Shown one piece after another: positions 8,441 to 22,780 of a stretch of 64,000 bases of DNA (the first letter of the stretch is position 1; each line of letters opens with the position of its first letter). Below the pieces are notes generated by a model. It had not been told where the DNA came from and did not search any database. It was given only the letters and a program-made list of their open reading frames with translations. The translations under genes and the position numbers were made by a program. This DNA comes from Deltaproteobacteria bacterium (GTDB taxonomy: Bacteria; Desulfobacterota; Desulfobulbia; Desulfobulbales; VMSU01), in contig JAJXUT010000001.1 in assembly GCA_021782655.1 (NCBI GenBank), positions 5,704 to 69,703 of the forward strand, given 5' to 3'.

Positions 8441-8535
8441 TAAGCCGTTATCACAAAACAACCTCTTCATTTTTTACAGCAAAAACGGCATAAGGAGCCG
8501 TAACGGAGGGGGGGCAAATTGTGGAAGTTATTTTG
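8441..8535. repeat. Intergenic repeat family A, diverged copy A3
   Basis: Shares TAAGCCGT..AAACAACCT..ACGGCA(n)GCCGTAA..GGGG..AATTGT..AGTT with copies at 12496-12594 and 22669-22780. Contains the ACGGC/GCCGT hairpin. Confidence 0.45.
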
Positions 8536-8567: not shown

Positions 8568-9407
8568 ATGCGCAGGGGGGAACGGAGCATGGGCAAGCGA
8601 CTGGGCGACATCCTAAAGGAACACCACCTGGCCAGCGAGGAGCAGATCGACCAGGCGCTACGCATCCAGGTGGGCGGCAACCGCCGACTGGGGTACCTCC
8701 TGCTCAAGATGGGGGTGATCAGTGCCGACCAGTTGCTTAAGGTGCTGTCGCAGCAGATGGGACTTGACATCATCAACGTCGATCAGGAGTTCTCTACCGA
8801 GGTCGTCGATCTCCTGCCCCGCTACCTGTGCCGGAAATACACCGTCCTGCCCCTGCGCCAGGAACAAAAAAACATCCTCAACGTGGCCATGGTCGATCCC
8901 TCCGACGACGCGGCCATCACCGACATCGAGACCTATACCGGCATGGTGGTCAGGCCAATGCTGGCCAGGGAACCGGACATCTCAGCGGCGATCAAGCGCT
9001 TGATCCCCTTTTCCTACCGGGACCTGGTCAACCCCCAGGTTTATGGCCGGGCCGCCAGGCTGGCCAGCCTCTGCCTCCTGGCGCTGCTGGCCGGAAGCGG
9101 CTGGGTTGCCTACCGCTACGTGATGCACGAACGCTACGGCACGGTCTCCGTCTCACCAGACGCGGTCACCTACAAGAACCACGACCTGATGGTGGGGGTG
9201 GAGGGCTCGGGCAAGATTTCGCTGCTCGGGCATGGGGCCTATACCAAGGGCTTCTACTCCGTCACCTTCCCCTCGGTTGACCGGCTAAAGGCCTTTGTTG
9301 ACCAACAACGCCCCAACTTTTCCGAAAAACAGGCCGCCTGGCTAGCCTGGCTGATCAAGGGCAAACTCTCGGCCAGCAGCAAGAAGGCCCCACCCGCCCA
9401 CAGCTAA
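8568..9407 (+). CDS. Stand-alone MshEN (T2SS-E N-terminal) c-di-GMP-binding domain protein with a TM segment and unknown C-terminal domain
   Basis: RLGDILKEHHLASEEQIDQALRIQ + VGGNR + RLGYLLLKMGVISADQLLKVLSQQ. The second half matches the 24-residue MshEN motif exactly, with a 5-residue spacer. The GspE_N fold continues (LPRYLCRKYTVLPL..NVAMVDP). TM segment LASLCLLALLAGSGWVAY. Confidence 0.75.
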   Translation: MRRGERSMGKRLGDILKEHHLASEEQIDQALRIQVGGNRRLGYLLLKMGVISADQLLKVLSQQMGLDIINVDQEFSTEVVDLLPRYLCRKYTVLPLRQEQKNILNVAMVDPSDDAAITDIETYTGMVVRPMLAREPDISAAIKRLIPFSYRDLVNPQVYGRAARLASLCLLALLAGSGWVAYRYVMHERYGTVSVSPDAVTYKNHDLMVGVEGSGKISLLGHGAYTKGFYSVTFPSVDRLKAFVDQQRPNFSEKQAAWLAWLIKGKLSASSKKAPPAHS

Positions 9408-9512: not shown

Positions 9513-11474
9513 TCATTTGGGCCGCAGGGTCAGCTTGCCCTCCCCGGTATTCAAATCCATCTTGAACCGCCCCAGGTAATTCAAGCCCAAGAGCCCCACC
9601 CCCGGCTGATCTGGAATATCCATCACCAGGGCGCGGACGTTGTGCTCCGCCCAGCCCTCGACCTCCAAGGTGTCGATCAGCACCTCGGTGGCAGCGACCA
9701 CCCCGCCGGCGGTGGACACCTGGTGCTGATCCCAGTGATCCCCCCGCACCACCTTCAGGTTCAAGGCCTCGGCGGTCGCCGAGGGAATCGACACCATCGA
9801 GGCCCCGGTATCGACCATGAACTTCTGGTTGACCGCCTGGTTTAAGGCCGCCGACACCGGGATCAAGCTGCTGCCGGGGGGAAAACGGATCACGATCCGG
9901 CCCGCGTCGCCCTTCATCTCGGCGATCTTTCTGGCCAGCAGCTCGGCCCGATCCTGCAACTCCGGCGGGTAGCTCATCATGGCCAAAAGCCGCTCCGCCT
10001 CCCGCCAGTTGTTGTTCAGCAGGGCCAGCTCCACCGCCATCAGATGCAGATAGGGATCGTTGGGATAGAAGGCCTTGCCCCGGGCCAGGACATCGGCCGC
10101 CTCATCGAGCGACTTCACGGTCAAGAGCGACTGAAGCCACTCCCGGTACAACCGCAGATGCAAGTCGTTGACCGCCGGCACATCCACCCCCCCCCGCTCC
10201 ACCAACTCCCGGCCCACGGTCTCAATCTTCTTGGTGGCGGCCTCAAAGCCCTGGCTGGCAGTGACGGCGGGGATCATATCCAGGAATAGGGAGATGTCGC
10301 CGATCTCAAGCAGCACCTGATCACGCAAGGCGGCAACCACCTGAGGGCCCTGGCCGCTGCGGATCAACTTGCCGCACAACTTGCGCAGCAAGGCCACCGC
10401 CCCCTCGGGCCGCAGGTATTCCGGGGTGTCGGCAGGGGATAGTTTCGGCGGCAGGGAGAAGGCCTCGGCCAAAACAGCAAACACCTCGGCATCCGGGGAT
10501 TTTCCCCGCATGGACAAGGCGAGACCGATTTTCTCCTCCCGACCGCCAGCGAAGGTGCGGCCGTAAAAGTCGTGGGGATCGGTATTGGTGGTCAGCTTCG
10601 CCTCCGCCGGCCCGGTCCACAGGTAGGCCCCATCCCGCCAGGTTCCAAAGGTGAAGCCGACGATGGCCTTACCCTGGACGAACACCCCCACCTCCTTTAA
10701 GCCCTTGGGGATGACGCAGACCACGAAATCACCCTGCCGCTGGCCCGGCTCCAGCCGCACCCCGGTCACCTCGCGCTCCGACTCCAGGCTCATCCAGCCC
10801 AAGGGGATATCGCCCCGGAAGGCAGCCAGGGATAGGCCGTCGCCGCCAGCAGCGGGCGGCGGGGTTCGCCAGAGCCCGACATCCTGGCCCTCATCCCAGC
10901 GCCCGGCCACGATCTCCGCCTGCCGGCCATCGTCACGGACCAGCGTCCACCGGTAGCCAGCAACCAGCGCCCTGGCCGGCAAGGCAAGCCAACCGCCCAC
11001 CGTGACCGCACTGCGCACCCTGGTGACCAGGTGGCCCCAGGGGTCGGCAATCGTCACCCAGCCAGCGTTCAAGGTGGCCACGGACTTGGCCTTGGTTGAC
11101 GCGGACGGCGCGGGGGACGATTCTTGGGCCGGGGCGGCGGCGTGGGTCTCGCCAGCGTTGGCGTCCCGCTTGGCCTTCTGCTTCAACATTGCGGCCAGTT
11201 GCACCCGCATCGCCTCCCGCTTGGCGGCCAACTCATCCTCCCGCGCCTGCCGCTCGACAGGCGACAACTGCCGCTCCGCAATGGCATGAGGGAAAATCGC
11301 CTCCCTAAACACCGTGATAAAGGCGGCGGCCCACAGCAAAAACAAAATCCCGGCCACCGCGATCTGCCGGGAACGGAAACGATCGCTGCGCCGCTGCAAC
11401 TGCAAGGGAGCACCGCATTTTTCGCAATGCCGCCGGGCGCTGTCGTTGCTGGTGTTACAGCGGACGCAAATCAA
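9513..11474 (-). CDS. Zinc-ribbon / single-TM / TPR-like / retropepsin-like (clan AA, DTGA) aspartic protease protein
   Basis: N-terminal CVRCNTSN..HCEKCGAPL. TM segment IAVAGILFLLWAAAFITVF. C-terminal FMVDTGASMVSIPSATAEAL..STAGG..LLGLNYL is typical of bacterial retropepsin-like proteases. Confidence 0.75.
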   Translation of the reverse strand: MICVRCNTSNDSARRHCEKCGAPLQLQRRSDRFRSRQIAVAGILFLLWAAAFITVFREAIFPHAIAERQLSPVERQAREDELAAKREAMRVQLAAMLKQKAKRDANAGETHAAAPAQESSPAPSASTKAKSVATLNAGWVTIADPWGHLVTRVRSAVTVGGWLALPARALVAGYRWTLVRDDGRQAEIVAGRWDEGQDVGLWRTPPPAAGGDGLSLAAFRGDIPLGWMSLESEREVTGVRLEPGQRQGDFVVCVIPKGLKEVGVFVQGKAIVGFTFGTWRDGAYLWTGPAEAKLTTNTDPHDFYGRTFAGGREEKIGLALSMRGKSPDAEVFAVLAEAFSLPPKLSPADTPEYLRPEGAVALLRKLCGKLIRSGQGPQVVAALRDQVLLEIGDISLFLDMIPAVTASQGFEAATKKIETVGRELVERGGVDVPAVNDLHLRLYREWLQSLLTVKSLDEAADVLARGKAFYPNDPYLHLMAVELALLNNNWREAERLLAMMSYPPELQDRAELLARKIAEMKGDAGRIVIRFPPGSSLIPVSAALNQAVNQKFMVDTGASMVSIPSATAEALNLKVVRGDHWDQHQVSTAGGVVAATEVLIDTLEVEGWAEHNVRALVMDIPDQPGVGLLGLNYLGRFKMDLNTGEGKLTLRPK

Positions 11475-11522
11475 CCGCGTTTACCACCGACAAGAAGCGA
11501 CATGGGCCAAGACACGGGAATA

Positions 11523-12449
11523 CTACCGGAAAAGCTTGGGATTGCCAGCGACCTTGCGCACCAACTCGCGATAGTCACTGGCGCCGGGGGAACCGGGGGC
11601 GAACTCGTAGATGCTCTGGCCGTAAGCAGGGGCCTCGGACAGCCGGACGTTGTAGCGAATGGGGGCGCAGACGTTGTTACCGTAAAGCTCCTGGAGCCGC
11701 TCCAGAATGCCCACCGACTTCTTGACCCGCATATCCAGGAAGGTAGGCAGGATGTACTTCAAGGCCACTTGCGGGCGATACTTCTGGATCGAGGCGATAC
11801 TCTTCAAGAACTCCATCAGCCCCTGAATCGACATCACCTCCAGCGAAACCGGGGTCAGGATCTCGCTGACATAGAAGAGGATGTTAACCGTCAGGGGGTC
11901 CCAGCCGGGGGAGGTATCGACTACCACGTAGTCAAAGACCGCGTCCAGTCCGGTCAGGCTCTCGGCCAAGGTCAACTCGCCGCCAAAGTCCTTGCGTCCG
12001 ATCAGTCGCTTGACCCCGGCCAGGGACTTACCCCCGGCCAGGAGCCAGAGGCGATCCCGTACCTGAAGCATGGCCTCTTCCGGGCGCAGTTCCCCCATGA
12101 CCAGCTCGGTTAGGCCCGCCTTGGGGGTCACCCCCAGCATGTAACTGGACTGGCCCTGGGTATCGGTATCCACCAGCAGCACCTTGAACCCGGCCAGCGC
12201 CAACCCCACCGCCAAATTCACCGCCGTGGTGGTCTTGCCCACCCCTCCCTTGCTCAACGAAACGCTGATCCGACGCGGGCCGCTGTCCTTTGCGGACACC
12301 ACCGGCTGCTCGATCGCGCTCTCCGGCGCCGGTTCGGCCAGAGGGAAACTGGCCCCGCAAGATTTGCACCTCGCCTTCTTAACGTTAACGGGAATGGCCT
12401 TTTCATCAATGTGGTGCTGCTTCTTGCATTGGGGGCAGGTGATAATCAT
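11523..12449 (-). CDS. ParA/MinD-family ATPase with N-terminal MJ0042-type zinc finger
   Basis: MIITCPQCKKQHHI..ARCKSCGASFPL zinc finger. Deviant Walker A SLSKGGVGKTTTAVNLA..LLVDTDTQGQ and Walker B DYVVVDTSPG. Start set at ATG 12449. Confidence 0.85.
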   Translation of the reverse strand: MIITCPQCKKQHHIDEKAIPVNVKKARCKSCGASFPLAEPAPESAIEQPVVSAKDSGPRRISVSLSKGGVGKTTTAVNLAVGLALAGFKVLLVDTDTQGQSSYMLGVTPKAGLTELVMGELRPEEAMLQVRDRLWLLAGGKSLAGVKRLIGRKDFGGELTLAESLTGLDAVFDYVVVDTSPGWDPLTVNILFYVSEILTPVSLEVMSIQGLMEFLKSIASIQKYRPQVALKYILPTFLDMRVKKSVGILERLQELYGNNVCAPIRYNVRLSEAPAYGQSIYEFAPGSPGASDYRELVRKVAGNPKLFR

Positions 12450-12495
12450 AGACGGCGGCTCCAGCCTGCGATTGTCATACGCTTCTTGAAAAAAA

Positions 12496-12594
12496 TAAGC
12501 CGTCGAATGGAAACAACCTGACAAGCCTCACGGCAACGGCAAAAAGCCGTAAGGATCGGGGAATTGTCCCAGTTGTTCTGCACGGCTCCTAAAG
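12496..12594. repeat. Intergenic repeat family A, copy A1 (structured about 100-nt element)
   Basis: TAAGCCGTCGAATGG..AACAACCTGACAAGCCTCACGGCAACGGCAAAAAGCCGTAAGGATCGGGGAATTGTCCCAGTTGTT..ACGGCTCCTAAAG. Roughly three-quarters identical by eye to 22669-22780. Nested inverted repeats (CCTCACGGC/GCCGTAAGG and ACGGC/GCCGT). Confidence 0.6.
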
Positions 12595-12634
12595 AAAACG
12601 GGTCAGGAGGCCTTGGGCCCAGGCCCAAGCCGAT

Positions 12635-13036
12635 TCACTTCTTCAGGCTCTCCTCCTTCAGCAGCTCCTGAATCAAGGCGCTGTCCTTGCCCTTGGCCTC
12701 GAAATCCTTGAGCACCATGGCCACCGCGCTTTCTACGATACGTGACTTGGTGGCCATAAACCGGGCCTCGGCGGGCAAGAGATCCTTAACCCCCTCCTTG
12801 GCGTCGCCCAGGGTCTCGAACACCTCGGTAGCCAGGTAGTGGGTAGTCTTGTGGCACGGCCCGCGCCGGCCCCTAGCCGTCGGCGAGGCGGCGGTGGCCG
12901 CCTTCTTGGTCACGGGACGAGAGGTAGCCTGTGGCCGGATCAACTGGCCAAGCTCCTCCAGGCCCCGGATGGCGCCATGCTGGGAGTCGGCCAGAATGTC
13001 GGCCAGAATGTCGCGCTGCTTAGGTTTCTCGGGCAT
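12635..13036 (-). CDS. Hypothetical 133-aa protein, possible ribbon-helix-helix partner of the downstream ParA
   Basis: Non-overlapping ORF between the PilZ and ParA genes on the same strand. C-terminal KTTHYLATEVFETLGD..KSRIVESAVAMVLKDF has a strand-helix-helix look. No family recognised. Confidence 0.5.
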   Translation of the reverse strand: MPEKPKQRDILADILADSQHGAIRGLEELGQLIRPQATSRPVTKKAATAASPTARGRRGPCHKTTHYLATEVFETLGDAKEGVKDLLPAEARFMATKSRIVESAVAMVLKDFEAKGKDSALIQELLKEESLKK

Positions 13037-13051
13037 AATGCCAAGTGGTGG

Positions 13052-13489
13052 TCAAGAAAAGAGAGAGCTGCGGCTCTTCTTAAGATAGTCCAGGATGGCC
13101 TCTTGGCATTCGGGGCTCATGGCGGTGATCTCGATACCGCACAGGTCCTGGGCCCCGTCGCTGGCGCGATGCACCACCACCCCATCCACCAAGAAGGTCT
13201 GCCCGTCGATGGCGAACTGCATCCCGGAGAGCTTGGTCTTTAAGGTGAACCCACCCTGTTCGTTCAGGTAGATGCCGATTCCGTTGCCGCTCAGGTTGAA
13301 TACGGCATAGGAGACCCCGTCGATTACCAGGCGCATCCTCCGGGACAACTCGACCGGGGCGCGAAACCCTTGCCGGATGATCTTCTGAAGCTCCGTCTCC
13401 CGACCCTCAAGCCCCTCCGTCCGCCCCTCATCCCCAGTGTCAAAATCAAACTCAAGCCCTGGTTCATGCCTCATATCCATCTCCACCAT
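13052..13489 (-). CDS. PilZ domain protein (c-di-GMP receptor motifs intact)
   Basis: RQGFR (RxxxR) followed by NLSGNG ([D/N]xSxxG), then a beta-barrel-like remainder. First gene of the minus-strand operon. Confidence 0.75.
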   Translation of the reverse strand: MVEMDMRHEPGLEFDFDTGDEGRTEGLEGRETELQKIIRQGFRAPVELSRRMRLVIDGVSYAVFNLSGNGIGIYLNEQGGFTLKTKLSGMQFAIDGQTFLVDGVVVHRASDGAQDLCGIEITAMSPECQEAILDYLKKSRSSLFS

Positions 13490-13794
13490 TAAGCCTCCTT
13501 GCCTCGCTCCGCCACCCGGGCCCGCAAGGCTTCGGAATCACCTGGACAACTGGCCAGGGGCCCGGCCCGCTGACCAGGCCGCCCCGCTCTACCGAGCCGT
13601 CACTAGAATTATTAAATAAGTCCTGGTCTAGGATGTCAAACAATAATTCGCCAGGCGCCAGGCATAAAAAAAGTTGCCAACCCAAAATGACCGTGTTAAG
13701 TTGGCACAAATTATTGCCTGGATATTGGTAAAATTCCACCAGGCAAAGGATGCCTCGGCAATGCCCCGCGTCCAACTATAAATGGAGCCCCCCC

Positions 13795-22668: not shown

Positions 22669-22780
22669 TAAGCCGTCGAGTGGCAATAACCTGGACAATA
22701 AACCTCACGGCGACGGCACAAGTATCCGTAAGGGTCGGGGAAAAACTGTCCAGGTTATCTTTAATGTACGGCTCCTTAAG
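22669..22780. repeat. Intergenic repeat family A, copy A2, immediately upstream of the tatC start
   Basis: TAAGCCGTCGAGTGG..AATAACCTGGACAATAAACCTCACGGCGACGGCACAAGTATCCGTAAGGGTCGGGGAAAAACTGTCCAGGTTAT..ACGGCTCCTTAAG. Outer perfect inverted repeat AACCTGGACA/TGTCCAGGTT. Confidence 0.6.

Follow-up and report, generated by a model that had tools for sequence, protein, structure and literature searches.

Bacterial cells use ATPases of the ParA/MinD type as general switches and for spatial organisation, and cyclic di-GMP (c-di-GMP) is the main lifestyle signal. To our knowledge, the links between the two are few: those of FleN/FleQ and of BcsQ. We analyzed a 64,000-nt stretch of DNA (the window) from a Deltaproteobacteria bacterium (contig JAJXUT010000001.1 of GCA_021782655.1, positions 5,704-69,703, forward strand). 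The genome that holds the window (G000) is a 2.4-Mb assembly, 92% complete, from a mine-drainage metagenome. In the window are three genes, encoding a stand-alone PilZ protein, a 133-aa protein and a zinc-ribbon ParA, that form a conserved trio, and a fourth gene that adjoins them. We think that the trio acts as a DNA-associated, c-di-GMP-gated ParA switch and that gene 4 is separate, being adjacent only in this family. We put the probability of this reading at about 0.6.

In Pseudomonas, FleN is a MinD/ParA-family antiactivator and FleQ is a c-di-GMP-binding sigma54 enhancer-binding protein (PMC10723142, PMC8528422). The trio is like this pair in that a ParA/MinD-type ATPase would work with a DNA-bound regulator and c-di-GMP would set the output, all of which is predicted on the side of the trio. 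The likeness is also seen in a variant locus (L108, described below), in which the partner has a sigma54-type AAA+ module and a zinc-ribbon ParA gene follows directly. There are several differences. The trio would sense c-di-GMP through a separate PilZ protein and not through an AAA+ domain. The partner protein in the window has no AAA+ domain; this domain is found only in rare variants, which read GAFPGA and not GAFTGA in the sigma54-contact loop. The DNA-binding domain of the trio is predicted to be ribbon-helix-helix (RHH)-like, and not of the Fis-type helix-turn-helix (HTH) kind. The ATPase of the trio has a zinc ribbon, and it is nearer to Soj (the nearest relative of known structure is Soj of Thermus, 1wcv, matched over residues 58-301 at E 3.9e-34) than to FleN (structure 5j1j, E 9.5e-11). 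Last, there is no flagellar context at the trio.

The type Ib system ParF-ParG (of TP228) and related centromere-binding RHH proteins such as the ParB of plasmid pCXC100 are like the trio in another way: a small Soj-like ATPase is matched by a small partner with a flexible, basic N-terminus and a probable RHH C-terminus (PMC7993993). In contrast to these, the trio is chromosomal, vertically inherited and single-copy, its partner gene precedes that of ParA, no iterons were found at it, and it includes PilZ and the zinc ribbon as further components. In addition, RHH membership of the partner in the trio comes without a sequence-profile match.

Two other systems appear to be looser parallels to the trio than FleN/FleQ. 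In cellulose secretion by E. coli, BcsRQ contacts the PilZ domain of BcsA (PMC7840130). BcsR-BcsQ-BcsE shares with the trio a small-protein gene before that of a SIMIBI/MinD-type ATPase, a PilZ module and c-di-GMP input (PMC7840130). In contrast, the ATPase of the trio is not of the BcsQ family, no cellulose synthase is linked to it, and its partner looks like a DNA-binding protein. The nucleoid protein CdbA of Myxococcus xanthus is of the RHH kind and binds c-di-GMP, and the genes cdbS and cdbA do not share an operon (PMC10313047). CdbA/CdbS and the trio have in common an RHH DNA-binding protein, predicted in the case of the trio, and a stand-alone PilZ protein tied to c-di-GMP, in the former with a role in chromosome organisation (PMC10313047). 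However, no ParA is described as part of that system, and the likeness is one of description. By these comparisons the trio would resemble FleN/FleQ or ParF/ParG in its logic and belong to neither family. A literature search for a PilZ-ParA-zinc-ribbon system found no description.

An initial annotation of this DNA had proposed a unit of four co-directional genes. All four open reading frames (ORFs) were confirmed on the minus strand, and hidden Markov model searches (Pfam, NCBIfam) gave nearly the domains that had been named for them. We searched for each of the proteins in 40 related genomes and then compared the flanks. The first three genes of the proposed unit were found to be a conserved co-directional unit in at least 12 families. 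Three genera of the window's family kept the order PilZ, 133-aa gene, ParA, gene 4. The trio itself had the same gene order in at least 11 further families of the Desulfobulbales and in one genome of another order. At the trio loci outside the window's family, ParA was 65-75% identical to that of the window, and the genes that came after it were unrelated between families and mostly convergent. In 29 of 41 relatives, the gene immediately upstream of the ParA cassette was a PilZ orthologue. Trio orthologues are also present in cultured Thiovibrio species. In the databases the three proteins are named hypothetical protein, AAA family ATPase or chromosome partitioning protein.

Two loci differed in their details. 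In G019 (L019 4708-6028, minus strand), the zinc-ribbon ParA gene is followed by a co-directional gene for a ribose-phosphate pyrophosphokinase-like protein and one for a second PilZ protein. In G022 (L030 4611-5330, plus strand), the gene before that of the zinc-ribbon ParA encodes, in place of PilZ, a protein that combines a receiver-like segment with two CxxC ribbons. The input module of G022 may have been swapped from one for c-di-GMP to one for phosphorylation.

The ATPase of the trio is a zinc-ribbon protein of the ParA/Soj type (11523..12449, minus strand), as judged from Pfam, NCBIfam and an alignment of orthologues. Its likely start codon is the ATG at 12449, for a protein of 308 aa; this is the start in all orthologues. 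An MJ0042-type CPxC...CxxC ribbon (residues 1-36) is followed by a variable linker and by a core with the deviant Walker A motif KGGVGKT. The core matched AAA_31 (109 bits) and CbiA (69 bits), and the zinc finger matched Zn_ribbon_4 (PF13717; 46.9 bits, cut-off 30.3) and MJ0042_CXXC (TIGR02098; 31.5 bits, cut-off 20.9). That is, the ParA/MinD ATPase with an N-terminal MJ0042 finger that had been described from the letters of the DNA was recovered, with AAA_31 and both finger families above their cut-offs. The segment SKGGVGKTT was invariant among the orthologues. The protein scored below the NCBIfam equivalog cut-offs of NF041546 (69 vs 180), TIGR01968 (40.7 vs 212.9), TIGR01969 (58.4 vs 201.75) and TIGR03371 (49.6 vs 157.85). 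Judged by profile scores, it falls outside the named ParA, MinD, BcsQ and FleN subfamilies.

Across families the identity of ParA was 63-85%, and 19 of 20 orthologues kept the ribbon. The sole ParA without a ribbon, that of G006, has diverged faster (57-61% identity). No orthologue of PilZ or of the 133-aa protein was found in this genome, by profile search included. Although its assembly is only 84% complete, G006 looks like a natural case of co-loss that links the ribbon to PilZ and the 133-aa protein.

Canonical ParB was present in 37 of 41 relatives. We therefore rejected the trio as a replacement of ParABS and consider the zinc-ribbon ParA to be an additional ParA. No match to ParB_N (PF02195) was found in the 92%-complete assembly of G000, and this is probably an assembly gap. 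A C-terminal membrane-targeting helix in ParA was also rejected, since only ~7 residues extend beyond the Soj-aligned core. Relatives of ParA that were out of order (family f33) have a C-terminal extension, belong to a different subfamily and were uninformative. One other family of the phylum has a different ParA subfamily (L035 5681-8061; L036 6351-8579), with a core ~50% identical, a C-terminal extension of ~200 aa and no ribbon. In one genome its gene adjoins one for a PEP-CTERM protein with a thioester domain, and in another genome one for a GAF protein.

The first gene of the cassette encodes a stand-alone PilZ protein of 145 aa (13052..13489, minus strand), as indicated by Pfam, the c-di-GMP motifs and the position of its orthologues. 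It matched PilZ (PF07238) over residues 39-136 at 27.9 bits (cut-off 22.5), and its structure neighbours in the atlas were all PilZ. The bipartite motif RxxxR + (D/N)xSxxG is intact in the window: RQGFR and NLSGNG, the c-di-GMP motifs pointed out in the initial annotation, are both there. RxxxR was invariant across 18 orthologues. Based on these motifs, the PilZ protein of the window is a predicted stand-alone c-di-GMP receptor. G000 encodes 14 GGDEF genes above the Pfam cut-off.

The middle gene encodes a protein of 133 aa (12635..13036, minus strand), which we characterised by alignment, an AlphaFold2 (AF2) model, VIA-align, a family search and its fusion variants. Neither Pfam nor NCBIfam gave a match to it. 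When its C-terminal domain was used in an exhaustive profile search, 774 cluster representatives came up, and the gene was kept in 22 of 41 related genomes. Because of this large family and this conservation, we conclude that the ORF is coding; the possibility that it is non-coding, raised when the locus was first described, is ruled out. In the alignment of orthologues the protein has three parts. The N-terminal part is a basic, Lys-rich peptide followed by a DILxDIL...L.EL..LI helix, the middle is a variable basic linker, and the C-terminal part is a conserved beta-alpha-alpha domain (the X domain) with the pattern KTTHYL...TKSxIVExA...EFExKG. Most of 15 aligned orthologues have basic residues ahead of the DIL helix, which fits the rule shared by ATPase-activating partners (PMC7993993).

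The AF2 model of the 133-aa protein was confident solely for residues 62-133, and the strand was left as coil in the monomer. With residues 63-118, VIA-align (wide) gave low Z-scores (3-5.6), with RHH DNA-binding domains predominating among the matches (at least 15 of the 50 listed). These came from TraM, PutA, NikR, ParD, CopA, RelB, DinJ and the ParB of plasmid pCXC100. McdB, another ParA partner, was also in the list. The C-terminal domain of the 133-aa protein is probably an RHH-like DNA-binding domain, a prediction to which the structural matches point.

The X domain was also found in larger proteins. The best 150 matches of the exhaustive search were nearly all 110-160 aa long with the X domain at the C-terminus, and the long exceptions were of two kinds. 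The first kind is sigma54-interaction AAA+ proteins (P0169 and P0214; L108 2834-4114), in which the C-terminal X domain stands in place of the usual C-terminal DNA-binding domain (HTH). The second kind is GAF-domain proteins (P0243, P0299 and four others), in which the X domain comes after GAF. Enhancer-binding proteins have their DNA-binding domain at the C-terminus. We read the X domain as a predicted DNA-binding output module because it holds the position of the DNA-binding domain in both the sigma54-AAA+ and the GAF fusions. The AAA+ fusions also retain the N-terminal motif of the 133-aa family.

The loci of these fusions have the same order as the trio. In L108, a PilZ orthologue (hhalign 99.9%) is followed by the AAA+-X fusion and by a full-length zinc-ribbon ParA (65% identity). 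In L105, a PilZ orthologue (hhalign 99.4%) is followed by a GAF-X fusion and by a full-length zinc-ribbon ParA (63% identity). Three distant members of the X family were informative. One is followed by a zinc-ribbon ParA, one is preceded by a zinc-ribbon ParA (the reversed order), and the third has two X domains and no adjoining ParA. Since the fusion loci and two of the three informative distant members adjoin a zinc-ribbon ParA, the pairing of the X domain with this ParA is general. The protein with two X domains (284 aa, L109 3501-4355) adjoins, with no ParA, a gene for a receiver + HATPase_c_2 (anti-sigma-kinase-like) protein.

We propose the following mechanism for the trio. Dimers of ParA would form a complex, in an ATP-dependent manner, with the DNA-bound middle protein. 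The basic N-terminal peptide of the middle protein would stimulate ATP hydrolysis, as in other ParA/MinD partners, which share an activation rule for the ATPase (PMC7993993). PilZ loaded with c-di-GMP would dock on the complex of ParA and its partner, plausibly through the zinc ribbon, and bias the switch. The output would be transcriptional control, either like that of FleN/FleQ or like that of the ParF/ParG co-repressor, or else nucleoid-based positioning of a ligand of the middle protein. We prefer a regulatory switch to transport of a cargo because the partner fuses to modules of transcription factors, there are no iterons and there is no conserved cargo gene.

Several points weigh against a c-di-GMP-gated switch on DNA. 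The first concern DNA binding. At 12 loci we found no iterated or shared DNA sites upstream of PilZ or in the spacers between the 133-aa gene and ParA, apart from the promoter-like block described below. The VIA-align Z-scores are low, and scores of this size are common by chance. In addition, the 133-aa protein had no RHH family match by Pfam, NCBIfam or PDB sequence profiles, and Foldseek with its model gave no match. Other points concern the fusions and the parts of the trio. The departure from GAFTGA in the AAA+ fusions makes their coupling to sigma54 uncertain. The DIL motif of the GAF fusions lies inside the protein and not at its N-terminus, which weakens the reading of an N-terminal activating peptide. 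Three families of the trio lineage (G016, G026, G027) gave no match to the middle gene, which is therefore not indispensable. Many PilZ orthologues have Gly in place of the Ser of (D/N)xSxxG, and Ala or Cys stands there in others from other families.

The alternative that survives best is that the trio works as ParF/ParG does, in positioning. ParA would act on the nucleoid matrix, with the RHH-like protein as its adaptor and activator, and would place or segregate a cargo, with dependence on c-di-GMP through PilZ. This ParA is closest to chromosomal Soj, its partner combines a basic N-terminal peptide with an RHH-like domain as ParG does (PMC7993993), and one of the distant members of the X family has the classical order of ParA then partner. 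A ParB_C-type cluster is also among the atlas feature neighbours of the 133-aa protein. However, there are no centromere-like iterons near the cassette at the 12 loci compared, and no conserved candidate for a cargo gene, the downstream genes varying by family. The cassette is chromosomal, single-copy and vertically inherited, canonical ParB is present in relatives, and fusions of the partner to sigma54-AAA+ and GAF are typical of transcription factors. On balance we consider positioning of a cargo unlikely, but a serious rival to the switch.

A broader form of the switch reading, which we advance tentatively, is that the trio represents an undescribed class of c-di-GMP-gated ParA switches on DNA, found in the Desulfobulbales and in scattered other Desulfobacterota. 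Such a class would follow FleN/FleQ in its logic while being made of different parts. Its partner protein would be able to absorb GAF or sigma54-AAA+ modules, and in the window's family a periplasmic retropepsin was possibly recruited as a co-expressed output. If true, the trio would be a third, differently built link of c-di-GMP to the ParA/MinD ATPases. Its carriers are environmentally important, little-studied, sulfur-cycling Desulfobulbales. The trio is also tractable, consisting of three small soluble proteins with orthologues in cultured Thiovibrio.

Gene 4 (9513..11474, minus strand) encodes a membrane protein of 653 aa. According to another alternative, the four genes are a true operon in which a c-di-GMP-gated ParA positions or controls this membrane-anchored retropepsin-like protease. 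In the window, ParA is followed after 48 nt by gene 4, the gap has no terminator-like site, and the two may be co-transcribed in this genome. ParA and gene 4 both have N-terminal zinc ribbons. The adjacency of the two genes persists through four genera of the family, though the outer flanks have changed in G000 and G005. It persists also in G006, which lacks PilZ and the 133-aa gene and has ParA and gene 4 alone. These last observations count against our view of gene 4 as separate, and there may be a lineage-specific functional tie of gene 4 to ParA.

A reverse survey gave a different picture. We scanned an alignment of gene 4 over one genome per species, which gave 67 loci. ParA, PilZ or the 133-aa gene adjoined gene 4 (INDEPENDENCE) at only 12 of these, all in the window's clade. 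The other 55 loci were in Thermodesulfovibrionia/Nitrospirota, Desulfobacterales, other Desulfobulbia and Planctomycetota, and had no ParA, PilZ or 133-aa gene in the flanks examined. Gene 4 had no universal neighbour; the best neighbour cluster was at 10 of 56 loci. From the side of the trio, at least 11 other families had gene 4 either unlinked or without a match. It was on a separate contig from the trio in G016, G019 and G023, and at least 10 genomes with the trio gave no match to it. In G008 ParA and gene 4 are separated by a CheW-REC gene on the opposite strand, and in genus g3 the gap between the two is wider (110-360 nt, with cases of 180-360 nt). Thus gene 4 mostly stands without the trio. 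Unlinked occurrence was what the initial annotation had itself given as refuting the four-gene unit, and that unit does not hold. Its proposal of the protease as a cargo or effector of ParA is likewise not supported, the adjacency being confined to 12 of 67 species loci in one clade.

The history of gene 4 is also separate. In a maximum-likelihood tree, the copies of the window's clade and those of Nitrospirota formed one clade (100/100) nested among the copies of other Desulfobulbia. The Nitrospirota/Thermodesulfovibrionia homologues (L047-L063, L099) are full-length and stand without the trio. We infer that gene 4 moved between phyla alone, because the Nitrospirota copies nest with the window's clade yet are without the trio. 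The window's family also conserves other neighbours, TatD, YggS, a divergent FHA class-III cyclase and a CxxCxxCC protein, and for this reason the adjacency of ParA and gene 4 is not above background synteny. In addition, little of the gene 4 protein could be reached by a cytoplasmic ATPase, since only ~35 N-terminal residues are cytoplasmic. The positioning of a membrane aspartic protease by ParA is an attractive idea, and what speaks for it is a clade-specific adjacency. We conclude that gene 4 is functionally separable, and not an obligate partner or cargo of ParA; a true four-gene operon is improbable.

The alternative that fares worst, and which we regard as highly improbable, is an assembly factor like BcsQ/BcsR, in which the ATPase and its partner would serve, through contact with PilZ, as chaperone or activator of a membrane machine for exopolysaccharide or PEP-CTERM: the parts are parallel (a small-protein gene before a MinD/ParA-type ATPase, and a PilZ module; PMC7840130) and the neighbours in the window are PrsT, a PEP-CTERM protein and an MshEN c-di-GMP receptor, but the matches to CBP_BcsQ (18.1 vs 21.3) and TIGR03371 (49.6 vs 157.85) are below cut-off, exosortase-type neighbours occur in G000 and G005 alone, the other trio loci being without them, no synthase gene is linked, and the domain of the partner looks like a DNA-binding module.

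We assigned the parts of the gene 4 protein from Pfam, NCBIfam, hydropathy, an AF2 model and Foldseek, along with the synteny and tree given above. A zinc ribbon (residues 3-25) is followed by a transmembrane segment (~35-57), a coiled helix, an HtrA/S1-like pseudo-protease (136-290), a helical repeat domain (300-521) and a retropepsin-like DTGA protease (527-652). The protease matched Asp_protease_2 (PF13650; 61 bits, cut-off 24.3) and PF13975 (61.9 bits, cut-off 28.2), and scored slightly below the cut-off of TIGR02281 (56.7 vs 57.95). The AF2 model had a mean predicted local distance difference test score of 78.7, and its C-terminal domain matched APRc by Foldseek (5c9f, E 4.7e-8, template-modelling score 0.71 by target). 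Two earlier assignments, a C-terminal DTGA retropepsin-like protease and a single transmembrane segment, agree with these results: the match is to clan AA, DTGAS is invariant, the fold is APRc-like and there is a single hydrophobic segment. The double zinc ribbon proved to be a single four-Cys ribbon, the match to DZR covering half a model at E 0.01. The TPR-like region was borne out in part; the TPR scores are below cut-off (TPR_19, 17.7 vs 25; TPR_14, 17.8 vs 23.5), and in the model the region is an all-helical, repeat-like domain.

The beta-rich domain at residues 136-290 is additional to what had been described. By Foldseek it matched HtrA, DegP and the inactive S1C domain of RsgI9 (E ~1e-5 to 1e-6). 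No His, Asp or Ser in it was invariant among nine orthologues, and we consider it a pseudo-protease because there is no conserved His-Asp-Ser triad. Only the zinc ribbon and a basic stretch, together ~35 residues, are cytoplasmic. By the positive-inside rule, the remainder would be periplasmic. The retropepsin-like domain is predicted to be a dimer-forming aspartic protease. The whole protein, placed in the inner membrane, is probably a protease that processes envelope proteins, with the pseudo-HtrA and helical domains predicted to bind substrate.

The protease domain is like APRc of Rickettsia (5c9f; PMC4140852) and RloA of Pseudomonas aeruginosa (PMC12239564), also in its extracytoplasmic location. 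Rlo proteases are secreted, related bacterial enzymes (PMC12239564). Compared with APRc and RloA, the gene 4 protein has in addition a cytoplasmic zinc ribbon, a transmembrane anchor, a pseudo-HtrA domain and ~220 residues of helical repeats. Among the atlas neighbours were architectures of other phyla in which a zinc ribbon or TPR is combined with Asp_protease. The architecture of gene 4 itself, zinc ribbon, transmembrane segment, pseudo-HtrA, helical repeats and retropepsin, is unstudied and widely distributed. Convergent with gene 4 in the window is a gene for a stand-alone MshEN-type c-di-GMP-binding protein (8568-9407, plus strand), which is kept there only in the closest relative, G005.

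Reading of the sequence upstream of the trio gave a promoter-like block, TTGACA-17 nt-TTTAAT, ~120 nt upstream of the PilZ start (13611..13639, minus strand). L009, L010 and L017 keep it upstream as well, which suggests that it marks the putative start of transcription of the trio. The scan for the consensus missed this block, the second hexamer of which has no A at position 2; the scan of the region for promoters and terminators gave only chance-level matches. By sequence and fold, a GC-rich hairpin lies right after the stop codon of the 133-aa gene (12609..12632, minus strand), with TTTTCTTT 12 nt further. The terminator scan did not call this hairpin, and we regard it as a weak candidate for a terminator-like or attenuator-like feature. 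A search of sequencing runs matched only DNA runs of the mine-drainage study; no RNA run contained the locus, the RNA matches being Walker-A segments of other organisms.

The gap of 185 nt reported between the 133-aa gene and ParA holds with the ParA start at 12449. The structured repeat noted in this gap (family A) is real; however, it is one copy of a dispersed, genome-wide element. Matches in the genome and an alignment of copies identified a palindromic repeat of ~100 nt with a copy at 12490..12600. It aligns with copies at 22669-22780 and 8441-8535, and in the 2.4-Mb assembly there are 19 matching places, on both strands, intergenic and with nested inverted repeats. An Rfam scan of the region, the palindromic element included, gave no family. 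The element looks like a repeat of the repetitive extragenic palindromic/miniature inverted-repeat transposable element type. At most orthologous loci the spacer between the 133-aa gene and ParA is 22-99 nt and is without the element.

The region upstream of the trio also has recurring neighbours. A gene for an FHA + class-III adenylate/guanylate cyclase is divergent upstream of PilZ in several loci (L010 3616-4605, minus strand; L013, L017, L018, L025, L026 and L027), and in several families TatD and YggS genes precede it. In L028, a CHASE2-cyclase occupies its place. In the window, a PEP-CTERM protein and PrsT replace this neighbourhood of FHA-cyclase, TatD and YggS.

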